A DNA stretch of 64,000 bases, taken from the IMG/VR virus record IMGVR_UViG_3300036768_001066; one strand, 5' to 3'. This stretch comes from a virus (Duplodnaviria > Heunggongvirae > Uroviricota > Caudoviricetes). The notes under the pieces were generated by a model. That model saw only the letters and a list, made by a program, of their open reading frames with translations. It was not told the DNA's origin and did not search any database. The translations under genes were made by a program, and so were the position numbers. Below, piece after piece: positions 11,286 to 50,719 of the stretch (the first letter of the stretch is position 1; each line of letters opens with the position of its first letter).

Positions 11286-12200
11286 TTAATCACCGCCGCC
11301 GCCGCATCCGCCGCCGCCACACGAACTACCACACGAACTCGATCCGCCGCCGCCCGAATCCCCTCCACCTGATGATGAGGAACAACTGCTTGAACAACTG
11401 CTGTGACTTGAACAACTGCTGTGACTATGTCCGGAACACGACGAAGAACAGCTCGATATTATTGGTGACGACGAGCATCCACTATTGTTATTATCGTCAT
11501 CTTTCTTCTTTTTTTTACTCGAACACGATGAGTAGGATCTCGTGTACGAAGAGCTTCCGTACGAAGAACCGTAACTCTTGGAATTTCTGGAATTGGAACG
11601 CCTGTTGTTTCTGACGATTGAATTTATTATAGCGGCAACAATAACCCCGCCAAGTATCAACCCTAAAACGAGCATCCATGCTGTGCCGGATGTCATCAAC
11701 AGAACAGAGGAAATTCCGAGAACTGCCCTGACTCCGTTCGCGAACTTCGAGCGTTTTCTGACAGTGTCTACTATAATTTGACGCTCGTCACGCACAACCT
11801 CGTCGCCGCCCCAGATGTCAGATGGCGGAGTCTGTCCGAATTCCACCACGTAGGCTTCCTTAGTTTCCTTGTACACATCACGGAATTTAGCTTCTGCCAC
11901 CTCATTACCGTCACCTGGATTGTGGTGAATCTCGGTTCCGAGAATCCCTGCGCAGAGGTCCTTCCAGTATGATTTGGTATATTGCAGGTGCAGGTGCCAA
12001 ACCTCATCTATGCGTTTGGATGGAGTGACCTCCATAATTGTAGCCAAATACATGAACTTCTTGTATTCTTCAAATGCACGCGCAGCAAGCTCCATGCTCC
12101 ACCCGTTCTCCTTAGCGAGCTTCTTCAAGAAGCTGCGAGGAGCGCTATTGTCGTCCACCATGAACGACGCGAGCTTATCCCAGAGTTGTTTGTTTTTCAT
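11286..12200 (-). CDS. membrane protein: N-terminal conserved domain (WHLHLQYTKSYW motif), one TM helix, Ser/Cys/Gly-rich C-terminal tail
   Basis: TM segment VLGISSVLLMTSGTAWMLVLGLILGGVIVAAII. The tail is CSSSCSGHSHSSCSSHSSCSSSCSSSSGGGDSGGGGSSSCGSSCGGGGCGGGGD. The neighbouring TPM-domain protein has the same tail architecture. Confidence 0.55.
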   Translation of the reverse strand: MKNKQLWDKLASFMVDDNSAPRSFLKKLAKENGWSMELAARAFEEYKKFMYLATIMEVTPSKRIDEVWHLHLQYTKSYWKDLCAGILGTEIHHNPGDGNEVAEAKFRDVYKETKEAYVVEFGQTPPSDIWGGDEVVRDERQIIVDTVRKRSKFANGVRAVLGISSVLLMTSGTAWMLVLGLILGGVIVAAIINSIVRNNRRSNSRNSKSYGSSYGSSSYTRSYSSCSSKKKKKDDDNNNSGCSSSPIISSCSSSCSGHSHSSCSSHSSCSSSCSSSSGGGDSGGGGSSSCGSSCGGGGCGGGGD

Positions 12201-12220
12201 ATTAGGTTTTTAATAATTTT

Positions 12221-13942
12221 TTACCAATCTCCACTCGAGCTCCCACATCCAGAACTACAATCACCAAACGACGATGATGAACAGCTCGACGATGAACAGC
12301 TGCTCGAACCGAAGGAAGAACCGAACGATGAAGAAGAGCTGTTGCGTCTACGCCTGCGTTCCTCTTCCTCCCGCTTACGCTTAGCGTCAGAAATATCGGA
12401 ATCCATGGCCCTGTACGCCGAGTCAAATGCCGACAGTATAGCAAGCGCAGCTGCAGCGTCGACAAGCGGATGGCCCGTTTTTGTGAACCCCGCGTACTTG
12501 GTCTTAGCTTCGGTGAGTTTGCGCTTGGACGAGGATTCCACGTCAGAATCTTTAGACAGACGTTCCGCCTTAGTTATTTTGTTCTTGATGTCGGTTTCAA
12601 AATCCGTCATAACTTTCTCGGCCTTGTTCAATGAGTCTCTTAACTCATAAGGCGAACGTAAGTACGAATTAGACCTGCACAGTATAGAGGTCGCAGAGGT
12701 CGCACACTCGCGTGCCTGTGATATTTTACTGTCCTTCAGAAAATTGACGGCCTTCTCGTACAAGCGCTCGGCCTCCTTGAGATTGCTGTCGATGTACGAA
12801 GGTTCCTTCATGCGGCCGTCCCACACTTCACGCTTGTACTTCTTGGTGATCGAGTCGTACACAACTTTCGCGTCAAGCTGCTGCGATCTAAGCACTCCCG
12901 TCATCCGTGCAATAGAGTTTACCGCATGTTCAGTCTCTGTCGCGTTCTTCATCTTCACTTCATACTCGTGAATCGCATGTGTGGATTCCTTGACGATGTA
13001 TTTCAACCTGGTAAGAGTCTCCTGGAGTTCGAACTCTATGTCGCTGAGCTCCACAACCTCACGGTCAATCTCTTCACAGTCGGTGTTGAACACCTTCCGC
13101 ATGTTGGCCTGGCCGATGTCGTACTTGAATGATTCTATTATAGCTACCGTCGGCTCTGTGTTCCTCTTAAATTTCTTTAACTCGAGAATGTCAGACTTCA
13201 GCTTGGCAACTCTGGCCTTGCGAGCCGCTTCCTCGCGCTCTACCCGTTCGCGTTCCTCGCGCTCGCGTCTCTTTTTGCGGCGGTCGAGTGCTATCAGCAA
13301 TACGATGAAACCTATTATACCTGCAGCCCCAAGAAACCACATAAGGCCGTTGAGAAACGCCTCTTGTCTACGTTCGCTCTCTATCCTGTCTCTCTCCGCC
13401 TGTGCAGCCTGCTCGGCAGCAATTTCGGCCTGAGTCTTCTTATAGTTGGCAAGCATCAACTCGAACTTCTCGTTGCCAAGTTTGGCCATGAAGTCGCTTA
13501 ATAACGCATCCATGCCCTCGTAATATTTTTTCTGCTTGAAGTTCGGTTTAAGCAAGGCGTCACCGCGTCCCTTCGTGTAATAATCGGTCAAGAAAGGCTC
13601 AAGACCGTATCCGACCTCTATACGCCATTTCCTCTCCTTTGCACAAACCAGGAGAAGCAAACCGTTGTTGAGTTTCTTGTCGCCAATGCCCCACTTCTTG
13701 AACAGTTTGTTTCCGTAATCGGCCACATCGTATCCGTCGAGTGTCGGGACAATGGCTATGGCGAATTCGGTGGTAGTCTTCGCCCTGTAGTCGCGTATTT
13801 TCTGATCAAGAGCCACTCTCTCCTCGTACTGGAGGAGGTTGTCAAGGTCTGTCACGTAAAGTCGCGGGTCCTTTTCCGGAAGCTTTTGCGCCCACGCGAC
13901 CGCGTTAAGCAGCACCAGAAGTATCGATATAACTTTGCGCAT
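12221..13942 (-). CDS. TPM-domain (YgcG/TLP18.3-like) membrane protein with coiled coil and Ser/Cys/Gly-rich tail
   Basis: Signal peptide MRKVISILLVLLNAVAWA. TPM block YVTDLDNLL...IAIVPTLDGYDVADYGNKLFKKWGIGDKKLNNGLLLLVCAKERKWRIEVGYGLE. TM LMWFLGAAGIIGFIVLLIAL. Charged coiled-coil region. Tail SSSSSFGSSFGSSSCSSSSCSSSSFGDCSSGCGSSSGDW. Confidence 0.7.
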   Translation of the reverse strand: MRKVISILLVLLNAVAWAQKLPEKDPRLYVTDLDNLLQYEERVALDQKIRDYRAKTTTEFAIAIVPTLDGYDVADYGNKLFKKWGIGDKKLNNGLLLLVCAKERKWRIEVGYGLEPFLTDYYTKGRGDALLKPNFKQKKYYEGMDALLSDFMAKLGNEKFELMLANYKKTQAEIAAEQAAQAERDRIESERRQEAFLNGLMWFLGAAGIIGFIVLLIALDRRKKRREREERERVEREEAARKARVAKLKSDILELKKFKRNTEPTVAIIESFKYDIGQANMRKVFNTDCEEIDREVVELSDIEFELQETLTRLKYIVKESTHAIHEYEVKMKNATETEHAVNSIARMTGVLRSQQLDAKVVYDSITKKYKREVWDGRMKEPSYIDSNLKEAERLYEKAVNFLKDSKISQARECATSATSILCRSNSYLRSPYELRDSLNKAEKVMTDFETDIKNKITKAERLSKDSDVESSSKRKLTEAKTKYAGFTKTGHPLVDAAAALAILSAFDSAYRAMDSDISDAKRKREEEERRRRRNSSSSSFGSSFGSSSCSSSSCSSSSFGDCSSGCGSSSGDW

Positions 13943-13943
13943 T

Positions 13944-14441
13944 TTATCTAATTTTTAAGTTCAGCTCGTCATACGGATCGATTGCAGGCTCGAGCATCGA
14001 CATGGCGGTCTCGAGATCCGCGTACCATCTGAGTATCTTCACGTAATGAGAAGGTAAGAATTTACTTAGGTCCGCGTGCTGCATGACGAGCAAAATTTCC
14101 GAAGACTGTGTCTCCTTATCGCATGCCTCAAATTCTGCCGCGCTCCTTACGCTTGAACCAGATTGTTTAAGATTCCATATACTCTCGAATACCGTGGCCA
14201 CGGTGACTATGTTCGGATCGGAGAATCCGCCAGGTGGCGGTTTAAATTCTGGTAGAGTTGTTGATATTCTTATAGATTCTATCGGGGATAAGTCGGACGT
14301 CTTCGCCCTGACCGTCTGCTTTGGATTCACCAGCTTGGACATAACGGCTATGCCCATAGCCGCGCTGTAGCTCTTTATCTTCCACAGGCCAGGTTGCCCC
14401 GATACGGTGAATACTTCTCTTAGGCTGAATGGTTCTATCAT
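13944..14441 (-). CDS. hypothetical protein (165 aa)
   Basis: Co-oriented ORF. No motif recognised. Confidence 0.45.
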   Translation of the reverse strand: MIEPFSLREVFTVSGQPGLWKIKSYSAAMGIAVMSKLVNPKQTVRAKTSDLSPIESIRISTTLPEFKPPPGGFSDPNIVTVATVFESIWNLKQSGSSVRSAAEFEACDKETQSSEILLVMQHADLSKFLPSHYVKILRWYADLETAMSMLEPAIDPYDELNLKIR

Positions 14442-14574
14442 TTTGATACCAGGATGTCCATTTACGTTTTGTATTAGTTGTGGTTCTCTGCGAACTTCAC
14501 TTTATTCTCGAGCGACATGTTGTCCCATCCTTCCGGTTTCGTTGTTTGTTCCTCCTGTGTCTTGAGCGACTTCA

Positions 14575-15478
14575 TCATCTTGTGCACGAGCGCTCGATCT
14601 GCATCTGGTGGTACGCCTCGTTGGACAGTATGGTCTCTTCCGGATTGTCGTTGAACCAGTTCTCCTTGAATTTTTCCGCCGCTGCTTGGTCAACTACGAA
14701 CACGTTATCCACTTTATTGAGATTGATAACTGCCTGGACCTTGTCCGAATCATAGTGCCAGTTGTGATTATCCACTTTTCCGTCACCCCACTCTATCCCG
14801 CAGTAGATGAACCCGTCGTTCATCAGGCTGGCGTACTGATGATTCTTAGGCGGGGACACGCTCAAATCGAGCAACCTCCGACTCCCGTCTGTGCCATAAT
14901 TCCCATTGTGCTCCTTGCTCCTAATCCTGTTGGCCGTATCTCGGCTCACCGATGACGTGAATCGTGAACCTGCGAATATCGCATCGTGAACCTGCGAATA
15001 TCGCATTCGTGAGGTATGTCGGGTTCGGCTCGGCAAACAAGAAATGATCCACAACTTGCACTGGGTGGGACTCGATGTAGTCGAGCACATCGTAAAGGCC
15101 CTCGAGCATCTGTTTCTCCACGTACTGCAACTTGTACTCCGTTGGTTCAAACTCGCTGCCGCTCGGAAAATGACCGCGCCCCGCGTCATCGGTCGCGGTG
15201 AATATATCCCTGGTGTCAAAGTTGTACTGTAGCACGATCCTCGACTTACCGTCCATCTTGCGGTGAAAACGCTTTCCGTTTACGAACTCATTGCGATCCT
15301 TATCCCAATCATCACCACAATACACCTCCAGAGAGCCAGAGCCGTCCTCGTGCAGGCACATCTCCATGCCGCGCACGCGCATGGACCAGGAATTGATCAT
15401 GACGTCGGCGCATAGCCTGGGGTCGGTTTTTATTCTGGAGACTCTAAGCACGTGCTTATTTTTTATCAATATCGACAT
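14575..15478 (-). pseudogene. hypothetical protein gene split by a 22-bp perfect tandem duplication
   Basis: ORFs 14921-15511 and 14575-15219 overlap in different frames. Both encode the peptide AIFAGSR across the two copies of CGTGAACCTGCGAATATCGCAT (14963-14984 and 14985-15006). Removing one copy joins ...PNPTYLTNAIFAGSR to FTSSVSRDTANRIRSKEHNGNYGTDG... into a single ~300-aa ORF. The N-terminal half of ORF 14575-15219 is Arg/Ser/Cys-rich out-of-frame junk. Confidence 0.5.
14963..15006. repeat. 22-bp perfect tandem duplication (x2) inside a coding region
   Basis: CGTGAACCTGCGAATATCGCAT appears twice back-to-back. The length is not a multiple of 3, so it produces a frameshift. Confidence 0.8.
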
Positions 15479-15662
15479 CGTAAATGAATTCGACGGAGAT
15501 GCCAGGCACATTCCAGTTGCGCATTGATAGCGCGTCCTCGATACGCTTGCGCATGTCGTTGATGCGCTCAGTCAAGCAGTCTCCCTTGAACTCATAATGA
15601 AGCTTGTTGCCGTTTAGGCTACTGAGAGTAGCATCTTTGTCTTCCAGTTTAAAAAATCTCAT
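15456..15662 (-). CDS. hypothetical protein (68 aa)
   Basis: ORF whose 3' end overlaps the start of the disrupted downstream gene. Plausible composition, no motif recognised. Confidence 0.4.
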   Translation of the reverse strand: MRFFKLEDKDATLSSLNGNKLHYEFKGDCLTERINDMRKRIEDALSMRNWNVPGISVEFIYDVDIDKK

Positions 15663-15849
15663 GGTTCGTGCAATTTTATTCCGTTAACGTTTGTCTCTCC
15701 GGCGATAGCTTCTCAAAATGCTGGAACCTGTATTTTCCGGTTGTAGTGGTCTCTGGCACTTGTTGATGGTGGCAAGGGCCACCATCGAAATCGTCCGCAC
15801 CCCTGTAGACATACAGCAGACGAAAATCTTTGGCGTACTCCATCATATC

Positions 15850-16980
15850 CTACTTCTTTTTGACGATGTGAGACAACGCGTTTTTCTCATGCAAATTTGC
15901 AATCAACTCGATGTAGGTACCATACTCCGCGATCTCTTCTGCGCTGTAACCTTCGGTTTCACCGATGCTCTTGAAGTTATTTTGCCAATATTTTATAGAG
16001 TATTTCATGCAGCCGATTTGAATCTCATCTGAGCCCCAATACGACACGTGATGTCTTGATCCGTTGAAGCTGAGAGAGCGCACGATAACGCATTCCTCGA
16101 TGCTCGCGCCGTCGCCGATGATCGTGCCGTCGCCGATGATCGCGTACCGGCTGATTTTCGCGTCCCATCCGATGCTCGCGCCGTCGCCGATGATCGCGCC
16201 GTCGCCGATGCTCGCGCACCGGCCGATTTTCGCGCCTTCGCCGATTTTCGCGCCCCGGCCGATGTTCGCGCGGGGGCCGATGCTCGCGCCGTCGCCGATG
16301 ATCGCGCCGTCGCCGATGCTCGCGCGGGGGGCGATGATCGCGCCTTCGCCGATGATCGCGCGGGGGCCGATGTTCGCGCGGGGGGCGATGCTCGCGCCGT
16401 CGCCGATGCTCGCGCCCCGGCCGATGCTCGCGCCCCGGCCGATGTTCGCGCCTTCGCCGATGTTCGTGCGGGGGCCGATGCTCGCGTCCCATCCGATGTT
16501 CGCGCCGTCGCCGATGCTCGCGCCTTCGCCGATGTTCGTGCGGGGGCCGATGATCGCGCCGTCGCCGATGCTCGCGCGTGGGCCGATTTTCGCGCGTGGG
16601 GCGATGCTCGCGCCTTCGCCGATGATCGCGCCGTCGCCGATGATCGCGCCGTCGCCGATGTTCGTGCCCCGGCCGATGCTCGCGCCCCGGCCGATGCTCG
16701 CGCCTTCGCCGATGTTCGTGCGGGGGCCGATGCTCGCGTCCCATCCGATGCTCGCGCCTTCGCCGATGTTCGTGCGGGGGCCGATGCTCGCGCCTTCGCC
16801 GATGCTCGCGCCGTCGCCGATGCTCGCGCCCCGGCCGATGATCGCGCCGTCGCCGATGCTCACGCGCTGGCCGATGCTAATGCCACGCTTTTTGAACTCA
16901 GCGGAGATGTCGCTGAGTTTATCGTACTCGAATGTTTCCCACCGTGACTTTTCCAGTGTAAAAAGTTTTACCGATTTCAT
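15850..16980 (-). CDS. hexapeptide-repeat (left-handed beta-helix) protein, ~44 consecutive repeats of x-x-[SNIT]-I-G-x
   Basis: Repeats of the form GASIGD / GASIGP / RTNIGE / GASIGW / DASIGP fill ~270 aa, between a short N-terminal region (MKSVKLFTLEKSRWETFEYDKL...) and an ~80-aa non-repeat C-terminal domain. The start is set at the internal ATG 16980 because the longer ORF would overlap the upstream gene. The repeat DNA is visibly GC-richer than the flanks and has strict 18-bp periodicity. Confidence 0.7.
   Translation of the reverse strand: MKSVKLFTLEKSRWETFEYDKLSDISAEFKKRGISIGQRVSIGDGAIIGRGASIGDGASIGEGASIGPRTNIGEGASIGWDASIGPRTNIGEGASIGRGASIGRGTNIGDGAIIGDGAIIGEGASIAPRAKIGPRASIGDGAIIGPRTNIGEGASIGDGANIGWDASIGPRTNIGEGANIGRGASIGRGASIGDGASIAPRANIGPRAIIGEGAIIAPRASIGDGAIIGDGASIGPRANIGRGAKIGEGAKIGRCASIGDGAIIGDGASIGWDAKISRYAIIGDGTIIGDGASIEECVIVRSLSFNGSRHHVSYWGSDEIQIGCMKYSIKYWQNNFKSIGETEGYSAEEIAEYGTYIELIANLHEKNALSHIVKKK
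16064..16900. repeat. 18-bp periodic coding repeat array (GC-rich) underlying the hexapeptide-repeat gene
   Basis: Iterations of cgccgatgctcgcgcc[n]. The spurious long ORFs in other frames (16025-16744 minus, 16064-17140 plus) come from this periodicity. Confidence 0.7.
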
Positions 16981-17063: not shown

Positions 17064-17702
17064 TCAGGGACGGACAGCTACGATTTTGCAACCGTTCTGA
17101 CGTGCAATCTCCAAGATTGGGTCGATGTTGTTCGAACTGATTTGGTTTGTAACGGCCACAACAGAACCATCCTTCAATTTGATGAACTGGTCCGCCTGGC
17201 AGAAGTAACGCTGCTTACCGCTCGCGTTCATCTTGCGGGCCGTGCTTGCCTCGGTGAACACACCGTAGTTGCGCACCAACTCAGAAGGGAAAATTTCAAG
17301 CAACTTCTTGAAACTGCATCCCTGTTTCTCAGCGATGAATTTCACAACGGCCAAAACTAATTTGCCCTTGCGAAATTCCTGTCCGTTGAATTGGTACTTG
17401 GAGAAATCGCGTCCGAAGTTCTTACCTTCCGACTTGTCGGTCTTGGCAGTTTTCTCAACCTCGGCTGCTTTTGCGGCTTTTGCGGCTTTTGCCTTTTCAA
17501 CAGAGGGCATAACTACCGAGAACAACTTCACACTCTTAGCCCCCTTTTGGAAAGTGTCAATTTGTTTACCAAGCTCACCGATAACGGCAAACACTTCGGA
17601 ACGTTTGATACCAGTTGCTTTCTCAATGGCCTTTGCATCGCTCTTCGGGTTCTTAGTTAAGAATGCTGTGACTTTAGCTTTGTTGTCTGTTGTTGTTTTC
17701 AT
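17064..17702 (-). CDS. lysine/alanine-rich putative DNA-binding protein, paralog A (shares a C-terminal ~100-aa domain with 23357-24109)
   Basis: N-terminal region then histone-H1-like AKAAKAAKAAEVEKTAKTDK. C-terminal domain YQFNGQEFRKGKLVLAVVKFIAEK...RYFCQADQFIKLKDGSVVAVTNQISSNNIDPILEIARQNGCKIV aligns with FKFNGIEYGKGPLVHAILTAHVEA...RYFLKESQIIKLADCSIAVCNQFTSDNIQAFLGAARKLGYSI of the paralog. Confidence 0.55.
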   Translation of the reverse strand: MKTTTDNKAKVTAFLTKNPKSDAKAIEKATGIKRSEVFAVIGELGKQIDTFQKGAKSVKLFSVVMPSVEKAKAAKAAKAAEVEKTAKTDKSEGKNFGRDFSKYQFNGQEFRKGKLVLAVVKFIAEKQGCSFKKLLEIFPSELVRNYGVFTEASTARKMNASGKQRYFCQADQFIKLKDGSVVAVTNQISSNNIDPILEIARQNGCKIVAVRP

Positions 17703-17786
17703 GGTCTTGTATTGATTATGGAGTAAAGTTAAGAGGTTTTTCCTATTCCGTAAAAATATTTCGGAAAATACTTACTAACAATTTCC

Positions 17787-17887
17787 GTAACTTATTGATT
17801 ATCAGCAAGATAGAGTATAAATGGAAAAGTCCTGGAAAACTTAATTTCCAGGACTTTTCCATAATGTATTGATAATCAATAAGTTAC
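17787..17887. repeat. nested inverted repeats in a 380-bp non-coding gap
   Basis: Outer 18-bp perfect IR: GTAACTTATTGATTATCA (17787-17804) and TGATAATCAATAAGTTAC (17870-17887). Inner 16-bp perfect hairpin: GGAAAAGTCCTGGAAA (17823-17838) and TTTCCAGGACTTTTCC (17845-17860). TATAAATG box at 17816-17823. Confidence 0.5.
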
Positions 17888-17935
17888 AAGTCACTCACCC
17901 TGAAGCATCTGCCGTGTGGTCACCTTTTGTTATCT

Positions 17936-18056: not shown

Positions 18057-18080
18057 AAGGACTTGTCCACACAGATTTGT

Positions 18081-18908
18081 TTAAAGATTTTTGAATGCAC
18101 GCCGCACGTCTCTCGTGAACTTGCCGAAGTCTGTGTCGTCGAGTATCTCTGGGAATCGCCACGCGAACCCGCGGTCCATCATGTCCTCCTGGAACTTGAT
18201 GTATGCACCAGGCTCTGGGGTACCGTCCTCCCTGAAGTCATATCCCATGAACCAGAGATTGTTTGCTATGGAAGACGTAGAGTGGTAATCGTGGGATACC
18301 ACCACTATGGTGTTTAAGTCATCAAGATTTGCGACCTCCGTGATGACCTCGCATACCTCTTCAGTCATATTCGGGTCAAGTCCTGAGAACGGCTCATCCA
18401 TCAACAAGAAATTTTCCGAACACAACAACTGCTGAATAATCGCGATACGTTGCTTCTGTCCACCGGATAGTTGCGCCGGATAGAACTTATGCTTGTCGGC
18501 CAATTTGAATCGCTCGAGGTAGAACTCAATCTTATCCTTCTGCTCCGCCTTACTTAAGCGAGTGTTCTTTGCGGCCGCAAGCTGCAAGTTTCCGAGAATC
18601 GAACGATGTTGAAACAACGGATACGCTTGTGCGACTACGCCAACCATGCCAGGATAAACCGGCTTGCCATTTACGAGCACCTCGCCGGTTGTGGGTTTAC
18701 GTAATCCGGAAAGTATGTTGAACAGCATCGTCTTCCCACGACCGGATGGTCCGAGAAATCCGACGATCTGTCCGGTAGTCTTGACAGGACGTACAACGTC
18801 CTTAATCTCGAGATTTATATCTCGCAGGATTAGCTTATCGTCGAGCTTAAGCGAAACATCTGTGACCTTAAGGATAGTCTTTTCGAGTATTTGATATTCT
18901 TGCTTCAT
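18081..18908 (-). CDS. ABC transporter ATP-binding protein
   Basis: Walker A GPSGRGKT. Q-loop. ABC signature LSGGQKQR. Walker B LLMDEPFSGLD. H-loop VSHD. Stop/start overlap with the permease gene. Confidence 0.85.
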   Translation of the reverse strand: MKQEYQILEKTILKVTDVSLKLDDKLILRDINLEIKDVVRPVKTTGQIVGFLGPSGRGKTMLFNILSGLRKPTTGEVLVNGKPVYPGMVGVVAQAYPLFQHRSILGNLQLAAAKNTRLSKAEQKDKIEFYLERFKLADKHKFYPAQLSGGQKQRIAIIQQLLCSENFLLMDEPFSGLDPNMTEEVCEVITEVANLDDLNTIVVVSHDYHSTSSIANNLWFMGYDFREDGTPEPGAYIKFQEDMMDRGFAWRFPEILDDTDFGKFTRDVRRAFKNL

Positions 18909-19702
18909 TTTCTTTCAAGTGTTATGTATGCGTAAGGACAAAGAGTCTTGCGCACGAAGCCAAGCATCCAGTCAAAGAACATACCGAGTATCAAAATCAT
19001 TATCTGGATAGCGTAAACCGCATCGAGGTGGAATACTTTGTTCTGGTCGTTGAGTATCACACCGATACCGCCTTCCGACCGGCATAGGTTCTCTACCATT
19101 GCAAGCATCATCCACGCAATCGCAAAGTTCTGTCGTATCACATCAAGGACCTGGTCCGCCTTTCCGAGTATGATGACTTCCCACACCGTCTCCCACTCAC
19201 TCTTCTTGAGTGTTCTCGCGTAGTCAAGCTCCGCCTTGGTAACACTCGATATGATTGCCGAGATGGACGTAACGTGAAATACAGTTATGCCGAACACGAG
19301 CAGCGCCACCTTCTGTGACGTGGTGTCCTTGCATATAAGGGCAAATAGGAAAGTTAAGCCTATAGTTGTCATGAATCTCGCCTTACCAACGAACGCCGTG
19401 AACGGCCGGAAGAAAGGCATGACTGCCAGGTATGCTATCACCAATGATATGATGGTGGCCCAGAACATTCCCTTAGCGCATAGCCAGATACTCGACAGGA
19501 GCTCTGCGAGAAATCCGTTAGCGAATAAACCCTTGGTAGCTTCCCATATATTTGGTAAACTCGGGAGGAGTTGTGTGTGACTGAACGTCCAGTATATTAG
19601 GACGGTCGCCACCCATATTGTCAACACCAGGAGCTGCTTGTTTTGTTTGAGCTGCTTGTTTGGCGTGAATATGTCTTTGATGAATGCTGTAACTTTATTC
19701 AT
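18905..19702 (-). CDS. ABC transporter permease (binding-protein-dependent inner-membrane component)
   Basis: Six hydrophobic segments. EAA-like loop ELDYARTLKKSEWETVWEVIILGKA. The start is set at ATG 19702 (MNKVTAFIKD...) because the longer frame would run through the upstream terminator. Confidence 0.75.
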   Translation of the reverse strand: MNKVTAFIKDIFTPNKQLKQNKQLLVLTIWVATVLIYWTFSHTQLLPSLPNIWEATKGLFANGFLAELLSSIWLCAKGMFWATIISLVIAYLAVMPFFRPFTAFVGKARFMTTIGLTFLFALICKDTTSQKVALLVFGITVFHVTSISAIISSVTKAELDYARTLKKSEWETVWEVIILGKADQVLDVIRQNFAIAWMMLAMVENLCRSEGGIGVILNDQNKVFHLDAVYAIQIMILILGMFFDWMLGFVRKTLCPYAYITLERK

Positions 19703-19713
19703 GACGAATGGAT

Positions 19714-19741
19714 AAAAAAGAGCCGGTAAAATACCGGCTCT
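19714..19741 (-). terminator. rho-independent terminator (minus strand)
   Basis: Hairpin AGCCGGT-aaaat-ACCGGCT. On the minus-strand RNA it is followed by UUUUUU (top A6 at 19714-19719). It sits right after the stop of the OmpA-like gene and before the permease start. Confidence 0.55.
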
Positions 19742-19746
19742 CAATG

Positions 19747-20145
19747 TTAACGGCCAAGTTTGATTTCAACACGGCGGTTCTTCTTACGACCCGCATCAGT
19801 GTTGTTGTCCCCGATAGGAGTGGTCTCGCCAAAGCCCTGAGCAGACACCTTGTTACGGAATATCTTCTGGTCTTTGTTGATTAACCACTGACGAACCGCT
19901 TCAGCACGTTGCTGTGATAACTGCATGTTCATTCCATCGTCACCCTGATTATCCGTGTGACCCTCGATGGACACGAGGAGGTTCTCTGCGATAATCAAGT
20001 CGTTTGCCAACTGATTAAGAGTAGGGATAGATGCAGGTAAGATGGTGGCGGAGCCGGTCTGGAACTCGATAACGTACGACTTGTTAGACACAAGCTGCGA
20101 CATCTTCTGGTTCTCCGAGAACGTAGGCATAGAAGCCACTGTCAT
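19747..20145 (-). CDS. OmpA/MotB-family peptidoglycan-associated domain protein
   Basis: C-terminal OmpA-like signature: IEGHTDNQGDDGMNMQLSQQRAEAVRQWL...GFGETTPIGDNNTDAGRKKNRRVEIKL. Start ambiguous; the longer frame overlaps the upstream gene. Confidence 0.55.
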   Translation of the reverse strand: MTVASMPTFSENQKMSQLVSNKSYVIEFQTGSATILPASIPTLNQLANDLIIAENLLVSIEGHTDNQGDDGMNMQLSQQRAEAVRQWLINKDQKIFRNKVSAQGFGETTPIGDNNTDAGRKKNRRVEIKLGR

Positions 20146-21491
20146 GTTGGCGTTGTTTTTATTGTTTGTATACACTGACTGCACGTACTCAAGTCCACCA
20201 CCTCCTCGTAAGGGAAGTACGTAGGCATTACATCCGGGTATGCTTTAACACATAGGTCACCAAAAGTAACATACACGGCTTTGTACTTATCGGTGCTTCC
20301 GTTTAAGCCGTAATACTCCGCAAGGTCCGCAAGGTTGAACACGCGGGATCCACCGATTTCGTTTATGTTGCCCTGCGCATCTGTAAATTGCTTACCTACG
20401 AAGTACTGCTGCCAGTCATCAGCCGTCAAGCCAGCGTCTTGGTATATCGCATCCTGCACACGGCAAGCAAATGCCAATGCCGAAGTGTGGGACTTAACCT
20501 GGTCGCCACCTAAACAACCAGCAAGGATGAATTTCTCAACGCTCGCTTTGTTGTCCTGTAACCACTTCTTACAAGCCAACCACGTGTTAGGCATCTGCGC
20601 ACCATTATCCTTAGTCGAGAATACTGTTACACCACCACGACCCTCGAAACAGATTTTGTCTCCCGGAGTCCACGTAACGCAACCGTCCACTGTGACAGTT
20701 GTATCTCGGCCTGTCCTTTTACCATTGATAACGATAGGACGCTTCTCAGTGGTCTTAGACACGTAGATTTGGGCTGCTTTAATGTAGTCATCGATACCCA
20801 TCCAGTTGATGGCCGTAGGGTCGTACGTGGTAGGGTCGTTGTTGACGTCAATACCGTTAAGGTCGGCATACTTCATTAGAATATTCCAGTCGCCGTCACG
20901 CAACACACCAACCCAAAGGGAACCGCGCAATTTCTGCGGGTCTTGACGGAAGGAACCATCCTTATAGATGGCCTTGCCCTCACCGAATGAAGCACCGAAC
21001 GCTGTGAACGCCTGAATAATGTAATCGTCACCGAGTTGTTTTTTGATTTGGTCGTTAAGACCTGCGAGATAAGACGGAACCCCGTCTCCCATCCAAGCAA
21101 TCATGTGATAGCCCTTTGACGAGTTCTTGTTTCCGGAAGCGTAGTCCTGCGCGAAGGCGAACAATTGGTTGCCCTGCTCGGTACAGTTGTTCTGGCAGAT
21201 AAGACGCAATTTAACGCCTTGTTCCTCCATGATAGATCCCTTCATTGTTGAAGGACCACCGTTTGCGTAAGCCACACCGGCCTGCGCGTTCCAACCCATG
21301 ATACCCGCTCTCCATTCTGGAACTGCAAGGGTTGTCATTTGTGTAGTGTCGGGGAGCGCACGCTTTGGCGCGTTCGCGTTCTTGTCATACTGCAGTGGCG
21401 GAAGATCCGCTACCGTAATTTGTCCCGACTGTTTTGTTGGTTTTTGGAACCAGCCGAAGAATTTTGTATCCGACTCCAAGGGTTCCACCAA
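20142..21491 (-). CDS. putative periplasmic substrate-binding protein of the adjacent ABC transporter (assignment tentative)
   Basis: 449-aa ORF upstream of and co-oriented with the permease and ATPase. Mixed alpha/beta composition. No transmembrane segments. The listed start is a TTG. No clear signal peptide was found from either the TTG or internal ATGs, so its role is inferred from position only. Confidence 0.35.
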   Translation of the reverse strand: MVEPLESDTKFFGWFQKPTKQSGQITVADLPPLQYDKNANAPKRALPDTTQMTTLAVPEWRAGIMGWNAQAGVAYANGGPSTMKGSIMEEQGVKLRLICQNNCTEQGNQLFAFAQDYASGNKNSSKGYHMIAWMGDGVPSYLAGLNDQIKKQLGDDYIIQAFTAFGASFGEGKAIYKDGSFRQDPQKLRGSLWVGVLRDGDWNILMKYADLNGIDVNNDPTTYDPTAINWMGIDDYIKAAQIYVSKTTEKRPIVINGKRTGRDTTVTVDGCVTWTPGDKICFEGRGGVTVFSTKDNGAQMPNTWLACKKWLQDNKASVEKFILAGCLGGDQVKSHTSALAFACRVQDAIYQDAGLTADDWQQYFVGKQFTDAQGNINEIGGSRVFNLADLAEYYGLNGSTDKYKAVYVTFGDLCVKAYPDVMPTYFPYEEVVDLSTCSQCIQTIKTTPT

Positions 21492-31550: not shown

Positions 31551-31778
31551 GGTTATCTTTTTGTTTGTCAATCGGCCTAATATAGGCAAATTTTCGGGTC
31601 CGATCAGCGACGGCTGGAGATTCTTCCACCGCGTAAGTACTTAACCGGTTACAAACCCTGGGGTTTTTGGGATAATTTTTTTATGCGCGTTTCGAACTTT
31701 TGTTTCGGCCGAAGCGCCGTTTCGTCATTTTTTTTTAGGGACCCGCGACAAATGGGCGATCCGCCGGTAATAGATGGT

Positions 31779-33584
31779 ATGGTAGAATTCGAAAGGGTCA
31801 AGCTGCCCAAATACTCAATAATAATACCGACGTACAACCACTTCGAGGACTGCTTCAAGCCGTGCCTCGATTCGGTTATTACGTCGACCAAGGACCTGCT
31901 CGTATCCGGCGACGCCGAGGTGATAGTCGTGGCGAACGGCTGCACCGACGGAACCGTCGATTACGCGAGGGAGGCGCCGCATTACGCGGACGGGTATCGC
32001 ATAAGGATAGTCGAGATCGACGAGCCGCTCGGATACACCGTTGCAGTTAACATAGGGTTGGGGCTCGCCAGGGGCGAGTTCGTGGTTCTAATGAACAACG
32101 ATGCGCAGGTTCTCGAGTGGGGCAAGGACGGCAAGTGGCTCGAGATGCTCCGCGAGCCGTTTGACCTCGACCCGACCGTCGGCATCACCGGCCCAAAGAA
32201 GATAATGTCCAAGGAGACGGGCAGGCCATTCGTGATATTCTTCCTCGCCATGATAAGGCGCCGGACGTTCTATGAGATCGGATACCTTGACGAGACGTTC
32301 AACCCCGGTGGCGGAGAGGACATCGATTTCTGCATGAGGCTCGAGAAGAACGGGTACAGGTGCGTGTGTGTGCCGGACGACGGTCCGACGGCCGGCGATT
32401 ACGTCACGTCGTACCCGATCTACCACGTCGGCGAGGCGACGGTTCACTCAGAGGTGGCCGGTTGGGAGGAGAAGTTCGAGAGGCGCATGAAGCTGTTGGA
32501 GCATCGCACCAAGAATGCTTATTACGCTACGCACGCGGACGTGACCTGCTACATATCTACCAGGGGCAGGTACTTCTCAACGCTGCCGCTCGCCATAATG
32601 TCAGTGATAAACCAGAAGCTGAAGCCAAAGCGTCTGATCATATTCATGGACGACTACAACGAGAAGCCGGTCGACCTGCGCAAGTACAGCGTATACCAGC
32701 ATCTGTTCAAGATGCTCCTCGATGCCGGCATAAATTGGGACGTGGTGTTCGGCGAGGGAAAGGGTCAGGTGCTAAACCACCAGAAGGCCATCGACATGGC
32801 GGGCACCGAGTTTCTATGGAGGCTCGACGACGACAACTCCGCCGAGCCGGATGTCCTCGAGAAACTGATGGCATGCTTCGACGAAGGGGTAGGCGCCGTT
32901 GGGGGCAGCGTCCCGACTCCGGGGCAGAATGTGCCCGGCCCTTGCTCCACAAAAATATCGGAGATATGCTCGTCCAGCAACATACAGTGGTCTGTCGGAA
33001 CTGGCATTATACCGGCAGACCATCTGTACAGCACCTTCGTGTTCAGGAAGGTGGCAGCCGCGCACGGGTACTGTAAGGAGCTGTCTACAGTTGGCCACAG
33101 GGAGGAGACTATATTCACGCACGAGATGAAACGTGCGGGGTGGCAGCTCCTGATAGACCGCTCTGCCGTGACTCATCATTTGAGGGAGACCGTGGGTGGA
33201 ATACGCAGTTTCGACGATTCCAAACTATGGGAGGCCGACGAGGCCGTATTCAGGCGCAAGATGGAGGAGTGGGGGGTGAAGCTGAAGGGACGCAGATATA
33301 TCGTTCTCGATTGCGGGCTCGGAGATCACTGGAGCTTTAAGATGATTCTACCAGAGGTCAAGGCCAAGTACCCGGATGACCGCATAACCATAGCTGCGTG
33401 CTTCCCCCACGTGTTCGACGATTCCGGCGTGGATCTGATGAGCATCGCGGACGCCAAGCAGATGTTCGACGAAAAACGTATTAGCAAGATGAACGTGTAT
33501 CAGTTCGGGGTTGAAGAGAACTGGAACGGTACGTTGCTCGACGCATTCAGGGAGCTTTACGTGAAGGGGAGGGCCTGGTCATGA
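31779..33584 (+). CDS. multi-domain glycosyltransferase (GT2 domain + second GT2-like domain + C-terminal GT9/heptosyltransferase-like region)
   Basis: KYSIIIPTYNH then D-rich NNDAQV and GGGEDIDFCMRL (GT2 DxD/ED motifs). The second half has LIIFMDDYNE ... WRLDDDN. The C-terminal region has LDCGLGDHW. Start set at ATG 31779 (alternative 31752). The ORF-track start 31683 lies inside a poly-T/hairpin leader. Confidence 0.75.
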   Translation: MVEFERVKLPKYSIIIPTYNHFEDCFKPCLDSVITSTKDLLVSGDAEVIVVANGCTDGTVDYAREAPHYADGYRIRIVEIDEPLGYTVAVNIGLGLARGEFVVLMNNDAQVLEWGKDGKWLEMLREPFDLDPTVGITGPKKIMSKETGRPFVIFFLAMIRRRTFYEIGYLDETFNPGGGEDIDFCMRLEKNGYRCVCVPDDGPTAGDYVTSYPIYHVGEATVHSEVAGWEEKFERRMKLLEHRTKNAYYATHADVTCYISTRGRYFSTLPLAIMSVINQKLKPKRLIIFMDDYNEKPVDLRKYSVYQHLFKMLLDAGINWDVVFGEGKGQVLNHQKAIDMAGTEFLWRLDDDNSAEPDVLEKLMACFDEGVGAVGGSVPTPGQNVPGPCSTKISEICSSSNIQWSVGTGIIPADHLYSTFVFRKVAAAHGYCKELSTVGHREETIFTHEMKRAGWQLLIDRSAVTHHLRETVGGIRSFDDSKLWEADEAVFRRKMEEWGVKLKGRRYIVLDCGLGDHWSFKMILPEVKAKYPDDRITIAACFPHVFDDSGVDLMSIADAKQMFDEKRISKMNVYQFGVEENWNGTLLDAFRELYVKGRAWS

Positions 33585-35503
33585 TAAATGATATTGAGAG
33601 CCAGAGATGCGACAAGCCAGATCCGCCGTATTTTGCCGGACGCATTGCAATAGTCATGCCGTTCAAGAATACCAAAGACGCGGATGGCAACAGCCTAATT
33701 CTCAGGTCCGCCGCCGTGGCATTGAACCCCACCGAGATGCGCGGTCCGAACGAGATTATACTTCTCGCCATCGACGACGGAGCCACCGACGGGAGCCGGG
33801 AACTTCTCGAGAGTATCGTGCAAGAGCACACTCGGAGGCTCGTAATCCTTAATGGCAGCGGCCGCGGACCGGCCGCTGCACGAAATGTTGCACTCGAGTA
33901 CATAAGGAGTTTGGACAACACGCCGGAAGCTTTCACTCACGTGGCATTTTGTGATAGCGACGACATGTGGTTCCCATGGCACCTGGCCCGTAGCTTGCAG
34001 GCCATTGATGACGGGTATGATATGGTGTATTCGAACGTCGAGTGCGAGAACGAGAAGGGCGAGCCTTTGCAGATATTCGGCATACCGAATCCGGAGGAGT
34101 TCGATTATGAGTTGCTCAAGCAGGGCAATTATATCTTCATATCAACCGTGGTCATGAAGAGGGAGTGTATAGACGTCGGTCAGTTCTCCGAGGATGCCGT
34201 CCCGATGGAGGACTGGGAGTACTGGTTGCGCGTTGCCGCGAAGTATCGGGTCAAACACGTACACGCAAAGAAGCCGAGCATAATCTACACATGGAAGAGC
34301 ACGGGCTCGTACTATACGGCAGAGGACTCGCATGCCGCTAAATTAAGAATACAACGGAAGATGAATTTACAAGATCCAATGAATGTCGAGGGATGGCTCT
34401 CCAGGGCGGAGGGCGAGTTCCTCGCAAAAAACGCCGAGGGCCGCAGATGTATAGAGATAGGCTCGTACAAGGGCAAGAGCGCTTGTTTTATGGCGCCGAA
34501 GGCGACGAGCATCGTGTGCATAGACACGTTCAAGGCGGACAACGGCGGACAGACTCAGATGCAGTCGCTCACCACCTACGTTGATTTCGCAAGGAACACC
34601 GCGCATCTCAACAACGTCACACCGCTCATTGGTATGTCGCAGAACGTGCACCAGTTGCTGAAGAACGACGAGTTCGACTTCATATTCATAGATAGCATGC
34701 ACGATTACGAGTCGGTCATGAACGATGTAAAGAACTACCTGCCCAAGCTGAAGGACGGCGCCGTGATAATGTTTCACGACTACTTCGAGCGCGACTGGCC
34801 GGGTGTTGTCAGGTGCGTCAACGAGTTATTTGGCGGCCCTGACGAACTCGTCGATACAATAGCGAAGGTGACAGTTACCGCAGAGAGGAGGTTCGACCTC
34901 GCTATCAAGTTCGCTGGGATGACATCCAGCGTTGATACTATCCCGAGCAATGAACCAAAGTTAGAGTTGACTCCTGATGTATCGGATTTCGAGAAGGGCT
35001 CACTCGATGGTAAAGTCATAGTGATAGCCCCATGGGCTGCTAAGTTGCCGGGGATGGAAAACGCCAAGAATTACCAGGACTGGCCGGAGGTGGTTGGCAT
35101 GCTTCGCGCACTCGGCGCTTACACCATACAGGTAGGTGTTGCTGGCGAGAAGTTGGTCGGATGCGACGAAGTCATACTGAACGCGGCGCCCGATAAACTC
35201 CTAAAGATCCTCAACGCATGCGATACGTTCGTGTCGGTGGACTCGTTCTTCCCTCATTTTGCAGCGTACCACAACAAAAAAGGTGTGGTTATTTTTTCGA
35301 AGTCGGACCCAAAAATTTTTGGACATTCCATCCACCTAAACCTCTTAAAATCAAGAGAATATTTGCGCCCGGACCAGTTCAGATGGTGGCGCGATGTTGC
35401 CTTAGATAAATCAGCCTTTGTGACTCCAAATGAGGTAGTTGCGGGTGTTTTGGAAATCTTAAAAGATGCGGAAATATATACAGAGCTGCCCGAAAGAAAG
35501 TGA
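33581..35503 (+). CDS. tri-domain enzyme: GT2 glycosyltransferase, class-I SAM methyltransferase (TylF/MycF-like), GT9-like C-terminal domain
   Basis: N-terminus IAIVMPFKN...LAIDDGATDGS...DSDDMW (GT2). Middle CIEIGSYKGKSA...FDFIFIDSMHDYESV...MFHDY (Methyltransf_24-like). C-terminus VIVIAPWAAK...FVSVDSFFPHFAAY (heptosyltransferase-like). ATGA overlap with the upstream gene. Confidence 0.7.
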   Translation: MINDIESQRCDKPDPPYFAGRIAIVMPFKNTKDADGNSLILRSAAVALNPTEMRGPNEIILLAIDDGATDGSRELLESIVQEHTRRLVILNGSGRGPAAARNVALEYIRSLDNTPEAFTHVAFCDSDDMWFPWHLARSLQAIDDGYDMVYSNVECENEKGEPLQIFGIPNPEEFDYELLKQGNYIFISTVVMKRECIDVGQFSEDAVPMEDWEYWLRVAAKYRVKHVHAKKPSIIYTWKSTGSYYTAEDSHAAKLRIQRKMNLQDPMNVEGWLSRAEGEFLAKNAEGRRCIEIGSYKGKSACFMAPKATSIVCIDTFKADNGGQTQMQSLTTYVDFARNTAHLNNVTPLIGMSQNVHQLLKNDEFDFIFIDSMHDYESVMNDVKNYLPKLKDGAVIMFHDYFERDWPGVVRCVNELFGGPDELVDTIAKVTVTAERRFDLAIKFAGMTSSVDTIPSNEPKLELTPDVSDFEKGSLDGKVIVIAPWAAKLPGMENAKNYQDWPEVVGMLRALGAYTIQVGVAGEKLVGCDEVILNAAPDKLLKILNACDTFVSVDSFFPHFAAYHNKKGVVIFSKSDPKIFGHSIHLNLLKSREYLRPDQFRWWRDVALDKSAFVTPNEVVAGVLEILKDAEIYTELPERK

Positions 35504-35557
35504 GACTTTTTCGGGGATTGTTCTATAAAAAAAAACAAACAATTTTTCAGAAGAGAG

Positions 35558-38101: not shown

Positions 38102-38228
38102 AAATTATTCCATAATTTGTATGACCCTTACGGTGGCGGTGCTTAACGAAAAACGTGCCGCCGTCGATGAAACATCTAAGTTCTGCCTGCATATAATGAT
38201 CCAATAGTAACTTAAACCAAACGTTTCC

Positions 38229-38471
38229 ATGGAAAACAACGTTCAACAACCGGCGGCAAACAACCAGGTTCCTGAGAATCTGACGCCACAGCAAGCACTT
38301 GGTCTTCTTATCCAAGGCGTTCACTTCGCACAGTCTAAAGGAGTATACACCCTCAAGGATGCAGCTCTCCTCGACAAAGCGGTATCAGTGTTCGCTGTAG
38401 AGCAGAAGCCTGAGGCCACAGCAACTCCTGCGACAGCAGAAACAGCTCCTGTGGCAGAAGCTAAGGCTTAA
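38229..38471 (+). CDS. small conserved hypothetical protein (80 aa), Ala/Thr/Pro-rich C-terminus
   Basis: ORF with its own TATAAT box (38192-38197) and a strong downstream terminator. Confidence 0.45.
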   Translation: MENNVQQPAANNQVPENLTPQQALGLLIQGVHFAQSKGVYTLKDAALLDKAVSVFAVEQKPEATATPATAETAPVAEAKA

Positions 38472-38490
38472 GCGCCGGCTTTCAAGAAAC

Positions 38491-38524
38491 AAGCCCGATC
38501 TTAGCAGGTCGGGCTTTTCTCTTT
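38491..38524 (+). terminator. rho-independent terminator (plus strand)
   Basis: 8-bp stem AAGCCCGA / TCGGGCTT with a 10-nt loop. Followed by TTCTCTTTG. Confidence 0.65.
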
Positions 38525-38551
38525 GATATATAAGAAAACAAGAGTTCGTTA

Positions 38552-40371: not shown

Positions 40372-40380
40372 ATATAAGAT

Positions 40381-41219: not shown

Positions 41220-41229
41220 CTTTTAAATT

Positions 41230-43098: not shown

Positions 43099-43099
43099 A

Positions 43100-44755: not shown

Positions 44756-44756
44756 G

Positions 44757-45892: not shown

Positions 45893-45906
45893 AGTATATT
45901 TATTCT

Positions 45907-48482: not shown

Positions 48483-49063
48483 ACTATATTATTTTTTACG
48501 AACTCCCTTATGTACACAGGGTCTTGTATGTGTATCATGTTGTCGCTAAGTTCCTTCTGAAGGAACCCGTATTTGTCCGCATAATCATTGTAAACATCCA
48601 CAAATAAGAAATCGTTGGCGCCACACAGTTCTTTGTACCTTTCGTTCATGTACCTTATGTACTCTGCGCGCTCCGCATCTTCCCCATAAAATGGGAAATC
48701 CACGTTCTCTTTAGCATCCGCCTTCCTGAGGGTCGGAGGGATGTTGTACACCATGACCTTCACCCCTGGCATCTTTTCGATGTTGGCATTTATGGCCTCG
48801 AAGTAATTTTTTGCGATACTGTCCATCAGCATCCTGCTGCTCGACCTGAATTTGCCTATGTGGCACCTGCAGTCTATCTCTCCGAACGAGAAGCATACGT
48901 AATCGCCGGGCGCCACATTGAACCTCGGCTCGGATATATCCAGTATCTCCAATTTCTTACGGCCGAAACTCTGCGCCGTTATCGGTCCTATCCTGTTTGT
49001 AGAAACCCCCTCGATCTGGTCCCAGGCGAACCAAGCGTGACTATCTCCGAACGTATGAATCAT
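48479..49063 (-). CDS. SGNH/GDSL-family hydrolase or acyltransferase
   Basis: Block I IHTFGDSHAW (GDS-H) at the N-terminus. About 190 aa, typical of single-domain SGNH proteins. Immediately downstream of the carrier-protein gene. Confidence 0.5.
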   Translation of the reverse strand: MIHTFGDSHAWFAWDQIEGVSTNRIGPITAQSFGRKKLEILDISEPRFNVAPGDYVCFSFGEIDCRCHIGKFRSSSRMLMDSIAKNYFEAINANIEKMPGVKVMVYNIPPTLRKADAKENVDFPFYGEDAERAEYIRYMNERYKELCGANDFLFVDVYNDYADKYGFLQKELSDNMIHIQDPVYIREFVKNNIV

Positions 49064-49997
49064 TAGTTACCAGGTTTTTAATTTTGTCCGCCATGTGGTT
49101 CCACGTATAGTTGCGGTGAACCAGTTCGCAACCTGCCTGCGATATTCTTATCCTCTCGTCCTTGTTCCTCTCGTCAAGGTAGTATTCTATAAGTTCATCG
49201 AGTTCATCCAAATCGTGCCATACTCTTATATTGATCTTGTCTTCAAAATCGAGTTCTATGCCGGGGTACCACTTAGACAAGCACAGTGCCCCGCTGCCCA
49301 TTAGGCGTAGCATGCGGTCTGATGTGTACCTGAGCGCGTCGAAGTGTGACACGTTTATGGCCACCTTAGAGCTCCTGTAGCACTCGGCCTCCTTGGCCTC
49401 CCTGTACATGAAGTTACGCATGTCGTTACCCCACCCGAATCCGTACACTCCGAAATTTGTACCGTACTTGGACGACAGCGTGTTGACCATCTTGATTCTA
49501 TAGTCTGCCAGGGGGAAATCGTAGTCTTCCTTTGGGTAGTTGTTGCCCATGAAAACTATCTGTGGGTATTCTCCCACGCCACCGTCTGGCCTGAATATAT
49601 CATCGTTGAATCCGCTCTGGATGAACTCGGCGTTCATGCCGAGGGCGCGCATGAACATAACATCCTCATCGTTGGTGAACGCGGTTACGTCCACGGACCT
49701 CCCACAATCAATCATCCACTGAGGCGTAAGTTTTCGAAAGTCCCAGGTCCAGTTCACCTTAAACCCCGGTAGCTTGGCGAGCACCTCCGGCGTGTAGACA
49801 CCCGGTGATTGCACGTGCAGGAATATCAGGTCTGGTTTGAACCGCTCGGCCGTCTCTAACGTCTTCGCGTGAAGAGCCGCCGTGTTGTTGGGCACGGAGG
49901 TCCACAGAGTCCAGTCGAGGAACAGGTATTCGCTCGATGCGTCCGATAACGCCTTGCAGAGTGCGGGTACGGTAAATCCTATGTGCAGGGTCCTCAT
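49041..49997 (-). CDS. glycosyltransferase (CgeB/GT4-like C-terminal domain)
   Basis: About 320 aa. C-terminal half with ...VAINVSHFDALRYTSDRMLRLMGSGALCL... resembles CgeB-type GT-B domains. First gene of the minus-strand glycan block. Confidence 0.5.
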   Translation of the reverse strand: MRTLHIGFTVPALCKALSDASSEYLFLDWTLWTSVPNNTAALHAKTLETAERFKPDLIFLHVQSPGVYTPEVLAKLPGFKVNWTWDFRKLTPQWMIDCGRSVDVTAFTNDEDVMFMRALGMNAEFIQSGFNDDIFRPDGGVGEYPQIVFMGNNYPKEDYDFPLADYRIKMVNTLSSKYGTNFGVYGFGWGNDMRNFMYREAKEAECYRSSKVAINVSHFDALRYTSDRMLRLMGSGALCLSKWYPGIELDFEDKINIRVWHDLDELDELIEYYLDERNKDERIRISQAGCELVHRNYTWNHMADKIKNLVTNDSYVRR

Positions 49998-50004
49998 CTA
50001 TCTA

Positions 50005-50137: not shown

Positions 50138-50719
50138 ATGAAAAGGGTAATACTCATCGGTCCGGGCGCATCCGGCAAGGATTTTTTGAAACACGAGCTC
50201 GAACGGAAGGGGTTCAAGTGCTCCGTATCGTTCACGACGAGGCCGCCGAGGCCTGGCGAGGTGGAGGGCGTAAACTATTACTACATATCCGAGGAGCAGT
50301 TTCTGGGGATGATAAATAACGATGAGTTCCGTGAGTGGAACAAGTTCGCCGATAAGTGGTATTACGGCACGCCAAAGAAGCACTTCGACGGCGCCAACCT
50401 GTTCATAATGACCCCGTCGGGGATCAAGGCGTTGACCGACGAGGAGCGCTCGGAATCGTTGGTTATATACATCGACGCGCCCGAGGATGTGCGCAGACAG
50501 AGACTTGCATCAAGGAAGGACGCTGACGACCCGGAAAGGCGTCTTGCTACCGACCGTGCTGATTTTGCCGGGTTCAAGGATTTCGATTGGCACATAACGG
50601 ACCCCGAGTTCAGCGCGGACGAGATGTACGAGAAGATAGAGTCGCACAGACGCTGGTCCATGCTCGCCGACAAAGATCCAAAGGCCGGCAGCACAGTACT
50701 CACAAGACCTCGAAAATAG
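50138..50719 (+). CDS. gmk: guanylate kinase
   Basis: P-loop ILIGPGASGKDFL. Signature SVSFTTRPPRPGEVEGVNYYYIS (TTRxxRxxExxGxxYxF). Confidence 0.75.
   Translation: MKRVILIGPGASGKDFLKHELERKGFKCSVSFTTRPPRPGEVEGVNYYYISEEQFLGMINNDEFREWNKFADKWYYGTPKKHFDGANLFIMTPSGIKALTDEERSESLVIYIDAPEDVRRQRLASRKDADDPERRLATDRADFAGFKDFDWHITDPEFSADEMYEKIESHRRWSMLADKDPKAGSTVLTRPRK

Follow-up and report, generated by a model that had tools for sequence, protein, structure and literature searches.

Slipped-strand tandem duplications that cause frameshifts (the Streisinger model) are classic in the rII and lysozyme genes of phage T4 and in lacI of Escherichia coli. In contingency loci, known from bacteria and some phages, a tandem repeat lies in a coding region and its copy number sets the reading frame; these loci harbor many copies of 1- to 7-nt units, the tract is conserved in relatives, and the "on" open reading frame (ORF) is intact. 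In programmed frameshifting, as in the tail chaperone genes G/GT, dnaX and prfB, adjacent overlapping ORFs in different frames match one protein, and prfB is an example of a +1 recoding site. Phage gene relics left by deletion or mosaic recombination have an intact ortholog in close relatives, several lesions, and junctions that lie inside genes. Here, we analyzed a 64,000-nt stretch (hereafter the window, meaning the whole of this stretch) of the IMG/VR virus record IMGVR_UViG_3300036768_001066, from a ~374-kb phage of the Caudoviricetes, in which a perfect 22-bp tandem duplication at 14963-15006 lies in a minus-strand gene of an unannotated huge-phage family. We conclude that the duplication is real and that the gene in which it sits is already a relic, with at least three lesions and two rearrangement scars, and very probably a fairly young pseudogene of an ordinary kind.

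The locus resembles Streisinger-type duplications in that it is an exact copy of a short unique segment with 2 nt of microhomology at the ends, the unit is not a triplet multiple, and wild-type relatives have a single copy. Unlike those cases, it is fixed, or probably at least in the majority, in an environmental huge phage rather than a laboratory mutant, and other lesions are present in the same gene. It shares with phage gene relics all of the features given above and, like them, keeps truncated neighbors (an HNH gene tail and a 12-codon tail of a small gene). Nothing essential sets it apart from such relics; it is notable for its resolution and for its occurrence in a ~374-kb phage of otherwise high coding density. 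As in contingency loci, copy number of a coding-region tandem repeat sets the frame here, but there is neither a many-copy tract of short units, nor conservation of a tract in relatives, nor an intact "on" ORF. Overlapping ORFs in different frames that match one protein recall programmed frameshifting, but the shifts are made by insertions that are absent from relatives and are not conserved, and there is no shared slippery heptamer or stimulator.

Results

Two overlapping minus-strand ORFs (14921..15511 and 14575..15219) each read AIFAGSR from their own copy of the repeat, as a preliminary description of the stretch, made from the sequence alone, had reported. We joined these ORFs in silico and used the 293 residues from the second methionine on as a search query. 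Of 18 matches, one (P0004) is the product of the window's own fragment B, as called in the Joint Genome Institute (JGI) and Logan assemblies; the other 17 are single ORFs of 376 to 404 amino acids (aa) that cover 84 to 98% of the query, the best intact match being P0001 (386 aa, E 4e-156). The relatives constitute an unannotated family of ~386 to 391 aa encoded on huge-phage contigs. These homologs are ~90 residues longer than the joined ORF, and the surplus lies at both ends. Thus, the expectation that removing one copy would leave a single ORF of ~300 aa was correct as far as the fusion itself goes (304 codons), but the ancestral gene was ~390 aa long and both of its ends are still missing.

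A tblastn search of the window with P0001 showed the gene to be spread over three frames (fragments A, B and C in Table 1). Fragment A stops early, at a TAA directly after a run of A residues. The final 20 codons of fragment B (CDIRRFTIHVIGEPRYGQQD) are out-of-frame read-through beyond the duplication, and comparison with relatives supports no separate start codon for fragment C. Residues 353 to 386 of P0001 have no tblastn counterpart anywhere in the 64-kb window. The closest intact relative, found via a 90%-identity cluster, is P0021 (391 aa), encoded at locus L008 on a 70.5-kb Logan contig of SRR23592399; its gene is ~90% identical at the nucleotide level to window 14586-15699. The window copy is collinear in its similarity with the ~386-aa family (P0001-P0018 and P0021) and lacks the family's C-terminal segment, and its sequence marks it as a truncated relic of that family.

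The two copies of the 22-mer CGTGAACCTGCGAATATCGCAT lie head to tail with 0 mismatches. Period-22 identity is perfect across 14961-15006, a span that takes in both units and 2 nt (AT) of microhomology at their boundary, and Tandem Repeats Finder called an array at 14961-15012 with a period of 22 and 2.3 copies. No further match of the 22-mer was present in the window with up to 3 mismatches allowed. Such a perfect duplication is far beyond chance: the analytic expectation is ~4e-9 per 64 kb, and no perfect tandem duplication with a unit of 12 to 60 nt arose in any of 100 first-order Markov simulations of the window. Translated in the frame of fragment B, the first copy encodes N-A-I-F-A-G-S-R; the second, in the frame of fragment C, encodes D-A-I-F-A-G-S-R-F-T, the additional 22 nt having shifted the frame by +1. 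A three-way DNA alignment of the window with the intact loci L008 and L002 revealed a single copy at this site in both relatives. The duplication is therefore a real, DNA-level change. An exact head-to-tail repeat that is single-copy in orthologs and has short boundary microhomology was most likely produced by slippage or a microhomology-mediated event, in agreement with the pseudogenization by slippage-type duplication that had been put forward. A 5-bp hairpin within the unit was considered as a cause of the slippage and rejected, as its fold is no better than that of shuffles (z about -1.5).

Two other tandem repeats occur in the window. A perfect 18-bp duplication (2.1 copies of CTTGAACAACTGCTGTGA) at 11389-11426 lies in frame within ORF 11286..12200 (-), which it leaves undisrupted, and is a second slippage-type duplication in this genome. 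A near-perfect 35-bp repeat (2 copies, 97% matches) at 50004-50074 lies between the divergent ORFs 49041..49997 (-) and 50138..50719 (+) and may be regulatory.

The same three-way alignment showed that, contrary to what had been supposed, the duplication is not the only inactivating event. Lesion 1 is a +1 frameshift at the A-run (15459-15464), where the window reads GAT AAA AAA TAA; one A fewer restores DIDKNKHVLRVSRIK, as in P0021, which reads through this site as DIDKNKHVLRV. This frameshift cuts off the first 66 codons. Lesion 2 is the second copy of the repeat, an insertion of 22 bp. Together, the +1 and +22 insertions leave a net shift of +2 and so fail to restore the frame. Lesion 3, at ~14581-14593, is the loss of the 3' end: similarity to L002, L003, L005 and L008 collapses abruptly 3' of about 14581-14586. 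Of the 60 positions at which at least 16 of 17 homologs are identical, 7 fall in the ~36 codons lost here, which include the motif N-x-Y-x-G...P-x-V...R...E. Each of these lesions alone would destroy the reading frame or the fold. The alignment further revealed an 18-bp deletion between 15665 and 15666, immediately upstream of the ATG, and a 12-bp in-frame deletion in a variable loop of low model confidence. Whereas the orthologs and the wider family are intact single ORFs, the window copy is both frameshifted and truncated relative to them.

A second frameshifted gene lies 5 kb away, at window 19747-21491 (-). Its L008 counterpart is a single ORF for an OmpA-domain protein of 604 aa. In the window, a shift at ~20190 leaves two ORFs, 20142..21491 (449 aa) and 19747..20184 (145 aa; Pfam OmpA, 1e-21). 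The split is due to a 1-nt deletion (AGTTAC to AGTAC), and identity to L008 is 98% on either side of it. Other same-strand overlapping ORF pairs (45.4-48.2 kb and 58.4-59.6 kb) were considered as split genes and rejected, as their members have distinct Pfam domains.

The 3' loss coincides with a rearrangement junction, at which codon ~350 of the 386-aa gene is followed by an HNH gene tail in a different frame; the microhomology there is imperfect (CGCnCGT). The HNH relic encodes, at 14477-14593, ALVHKMMKSLKTQEEQTTKPEGWDNMSLENKVKFAENHN followed by a stop and has 78% nucleotide identity to its homologs over 99 nt. The remainder of the HNH gene (~305 codons) is absent from the window. In L013 and L015, the corresponding proteins are 344 aa long with a Pfam HNH domain; this domain lies in the lost part, and the relic contains no HNH catalytic motif. 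Downstream is a 165-aa ORF (13944..14441) with homologs elsewhere in the relatives. There, a free-standing HNH gene is found two genes upstream of the homolog of this ORF (L013 4672-5706; L015 1356-2387; L014 319-1362), the order being HNH (344 aa), a 102- to 106-aa gene, the 167-aa homolog, a 96- to 100-aa gene, and a 589-aa homolog of the window's TPM-domain gene. This arrangement sits on other contigs from the same samples as the intact 386-aa genes. The 102- to 106-aa and 96- to 100-aa genes that flank the 167-aa homolog are also missing from the window. The replaced 3' segment is 34 codons long, the same as the original, and a hypermutation target of the kind associated with diversity-generating retroelements was considered; this was rejected, as identity between the two segments is at random level and the new one is clearly an HNH tail.

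The 5' side is likewise rearranged. In L008, L002 and L003, four small genes precede the ~386-aa gene; in the window a hexapeptide-repeat gene stands in their place. An 18-nt unit repeated ~43 times, with a super-period of 108 nt, makes up this ORF. Because of these repeats, long spurious ORFs appear in the other frames and opposite strand, and the Logan contig stops there. Synteny with L008 at ~90% identity resumes at 17078-17912 and 18076-20388, and the other L008 neighbors (genes of 142, 120, 139 and 167 aa, SprT-like, Toprim, NUDIX and TopoIV) are without counterpart in the window. What is left of the gene forms a 1.1-kb island flanked by two rearrangement junctions, each of which cuts through genes.

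Table 1. Features of the disrupted gene and its immediate surroundings (window coordinates)
Feature	Position	Strand	Details
Hexapeptide-repeat (left-handed beta-helix) gene, 413 aa	15850..17091	-	Pfam Hexapep, 6e-49
Relic, last ~12 codons of adjacent 87- to 91-aa gene (NVNGIKLHE)	15663..15703 (surviving codons 15665-15703)	-	Upstream homology boundary ~15699-15703
Fragment A, 68-aa ORF, ancestral codons 1-66	15456..15662	-	P0001 residues 1-66 against 15662..15465, 77% identity (tblastn)
Lesion 1, A6 run on coding strand (T6 on +)	15459..15464	-	A5 in L008; +1 frameshift
Fragment B, 196-aa ORF	14921..15511	-	Homologous part 15460..14985, ancestral residues ~68-225
22-bp unit, first copy in reading direction	14985..15006	-	Coding strand ATGCGATATTCGCAGGTTCACG; copies identical
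22-bp unit, second copy	14963..14984	-	22 extra bases compared with L008 and L002
Fragment C, ancestral residues ~218-352, third frame	14581..14985	-	81% identity to P0001 218-352; 92% to L008
Rearrangement junction	14581..14593		386-aa gene homology ends 14581-14586; HNH tail homology begins 14592-14593
HNH endonuclease relic, last 38 codons and stop	14474..14593	-	74% identity, E 1e-12 (tblastn, L013 and L015 HNH proteins)

The intact 87- to 91-aa gene is located at L008 5732-5995, L002 2042-2317 and L003 881-1153 and has the motif YCDDHDW...VNGIKLH. This motif resembles YCGDDWDKDRNEFVNGKRFH of the 386-aa protein (47% over 21 aa, E about 0.3-0.4, not significant), and the resemblance may reflect part of a paralog or chance. 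The rest of the window consists of dense, long, intact ORFs of huge-phage type (SbcC-like, DnaB, ribonucleotide reductase, glycosyltransferases and a baseplate protein). At ~31683-48172 is a large sugar-modifying gene cluster that has ribonucleotide reductase among its members. It contains two glycosyltransferase (GT) 2-family genes (one fused to a methyltransferase), a GT10/GT25 fusion, GT25, GT11, a sulfotransferase with a peptidoglycan-binding domain and an FkbM methyltransferase.

Age of the decay was assessed on a gene repaired in silico by removing one A and one repeat copy. The repaired protein covers 53 of the 60 highly conserved positions and is intact at every one; the remaining 7 lie in the lost C terminus. 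Pairwise comparison with L008 gave a ratio of nonsynonymous to synonymous divergence (dN/dS) of 0.08, with a dS of 0.275. Therefore, most of the divergence accrued under purifying selection. We then polarized the changes with L002 as outgroup, excluding the junction codons; three window-specific "substitutions" at codons 351-354 are junction sequence and were removed from the rate test. The window branch carries 20 synonymous and 12 nonsynonymous changes and the L008 branch 15 and 3, respectively, which is suggestive, but only suggestive, of relaxed constraint on the window branch. This signal would equate to roughly 1% neutral divergence since inactivation. At that level two identical 22-nt copies are unremarkable and, as a result, give no date for the duplication with respect to the other lesions. 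The description of the event as "very recent" is thus roughly right, given the low dN/dS and the intact conserved positions, although the 12:3 amino acid excess hints at some drift; the decay is recent and the pseudogene fairly young.

Discussion

Our data indicate that the window gene is, with high probability, a fairly young pseudogene of a conventional kind. Its ancestor would have been one ORF of ~390 codons in an unannotated family of huge (jumbo) phages. Upstream, a rearrangement would have put the hexapeptide-repeat gene in place of four small genes, with only 12 codons of the adjacent one surviving. On the downstream side, codon ~350 would have become joined to the HNH tail through a microhomology-mediated deletion or rearrangement, with loss of the most conserved C-terminal segment. 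The remaining 1.1 kb would then have gained two replication-slippage lesions, the extra A in the A5 run and the 22-bp duplication, although the evidence does not fix the order of the rearrangements and the slippage lesions. The product is predicted to be nonfunctional, and the duplication would persist because nothing selects against it.

Several points weigh against this interpretation. The excess of nonsynonymous changes on the window branch (12 versus 3) has a binomial p of 0.035, but a Fisher p of 0.20 when set against the synonymous counts. The Logan and JGI sequences come from different assemblers, possibly applied to the same library, and are not necessarily independent samples. A minority single-copy allele may be present in the population. 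Loss of function is read from sequence, and dispensability of the gene cannot be argued from biology in a family with no assigned function.

Selection for loss of the gene, for example as an escape from a host defense triggered by the protein, is the alternative that fares best, but we consider it improbable. At least three independent lesions combined with little substitutional drift speak in its favor. After a first lesion, however, all others are neutral, such that their multiplicity requires no selection, and the frameshift in the neighboring OmpA-domain gene suggests general decay. The fold resemblance of the protein is, moreover, below the usual confidence limits.

A more specific version, in which the intact family would represent a new ADP-ribosyltransferase-like effector of huge phages and its repeated disruption would reflect selection for loss (e.g., host-defense escape), is marginally less probable again. 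The family is sizeable: 390 clusters (50% identity) match its profile at E <= 1e-3, mostly over the full length, with proteins of ~380 to 500 aa. A scan of 185,579 bacterial and archaeal genomes detected no member of it. One relative is from an IMG/VR uncultivated viral genome of taxon 3300014205 (391 kb), and the same metagenome identifier is cited in a landfill virome paper. Family members, including long distant ones, had no match in Pfam or PHROGs, the family profile had none among PDB sequences, and Foldseek returned no significant match for the family in PDB or BFVD. The ADP-ribosyltransferase-fold enzymes (DarT, OspC3/CopC and Tpt1/KptA) were considered as possible relatives of the intact family, in which no catalytic motif was identified.

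The gene might still be expressed, with programmed +1 frameshifting or slippage during transcription carrying it past the A-run and the duplication, or with its pieces acting as separate functional polypeptides; this is very unlikely. The first shift site, AAA-AAA-TAA-G, is an A-run followed by a stop and superficially resembles +1 recoding sites, and the fragments retain every conserved residue that they cover (53 of 53). Against this, no shift site is conserved among the homologs, each of which reads in a single frame; recoding would require +1 shifts at two separate places; and no start is supported for fragment C. An A6 run is also short for efficient slippage by RNA polymerase. Finally, the C-terminal segment with its 7 invariant residues is physically absent and could not be restored by recoding.

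An assembly or sequencing artefact, in which the true genome would have one copy and perhaps A5, is more remote still. The genome is metagenome-assembled (the phage stock that the preliminary description had presumed does not exist); furthermore, two of the frameshifts in the window, A5 to A6 here and TT to T in the OmpA-domain gene, are changes in base-run length, an error type of some platforms. However, a Logan contig of SRR11727984, from a second assembler, is 100% identical to the JGI sequence over window 11921-15906 (3,986 bp), with the duplication, the A6 run, the junction and every other lesion included. Because the unit is 22 nt long, each 31-mer within the 44-nt array should be unique, and therefore the duplication junction must exist in the reads. 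The lost C terminus and the two rearrangement junctions are not error types, and the window lineage carries extra amino acid substitutions in addition.

Searches for other alleles returned only the two-copy form, which is probably the population majority. No single-copy or repaired product of the window lineage was present among ~15 billion predicted proteins, and nucleotide and tblastn searches of INPHARED phages gave no match. An exact-flank pattern (22- to 44-nt gap) applied to IMG/VR and JGI metagenome contigs recovered the window itself and no sister allele, and a protein-based scan of metagenome contigs yielded two distant fragments only. The phase-variable (contingency) switch that had also been proposed, with slippage between one and two copies turning the gene on and off, is equally remote: a perfect 22-bp direct repeat can revert by slippage or recombination and its length is no multiple of three, but there are just two copies, no homolog has a repeat tract at the site, the recorded sequences of this lineage all have two copies with no single-copy product in the protein collection, and going back to one copy would restore neither codons 1-66 nor the ~36 conserved codons at the end, which rules out a working on/off switch.

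The significance of the pseudogene beyond annotation is small. Pseudogene fragment, rather than hypothetical protein, is the appropriate annotation for the three ORFs at 14575-15662 and for the small ORF at 14474-14587. The locus is evidence of tolerance for gene relics and rearrangement scars in an environmental phage of ~374 kb. It also draws attention to a sizeable, unannotated huge-phage family with a confident predicted fold, which may merit characterization of its own.
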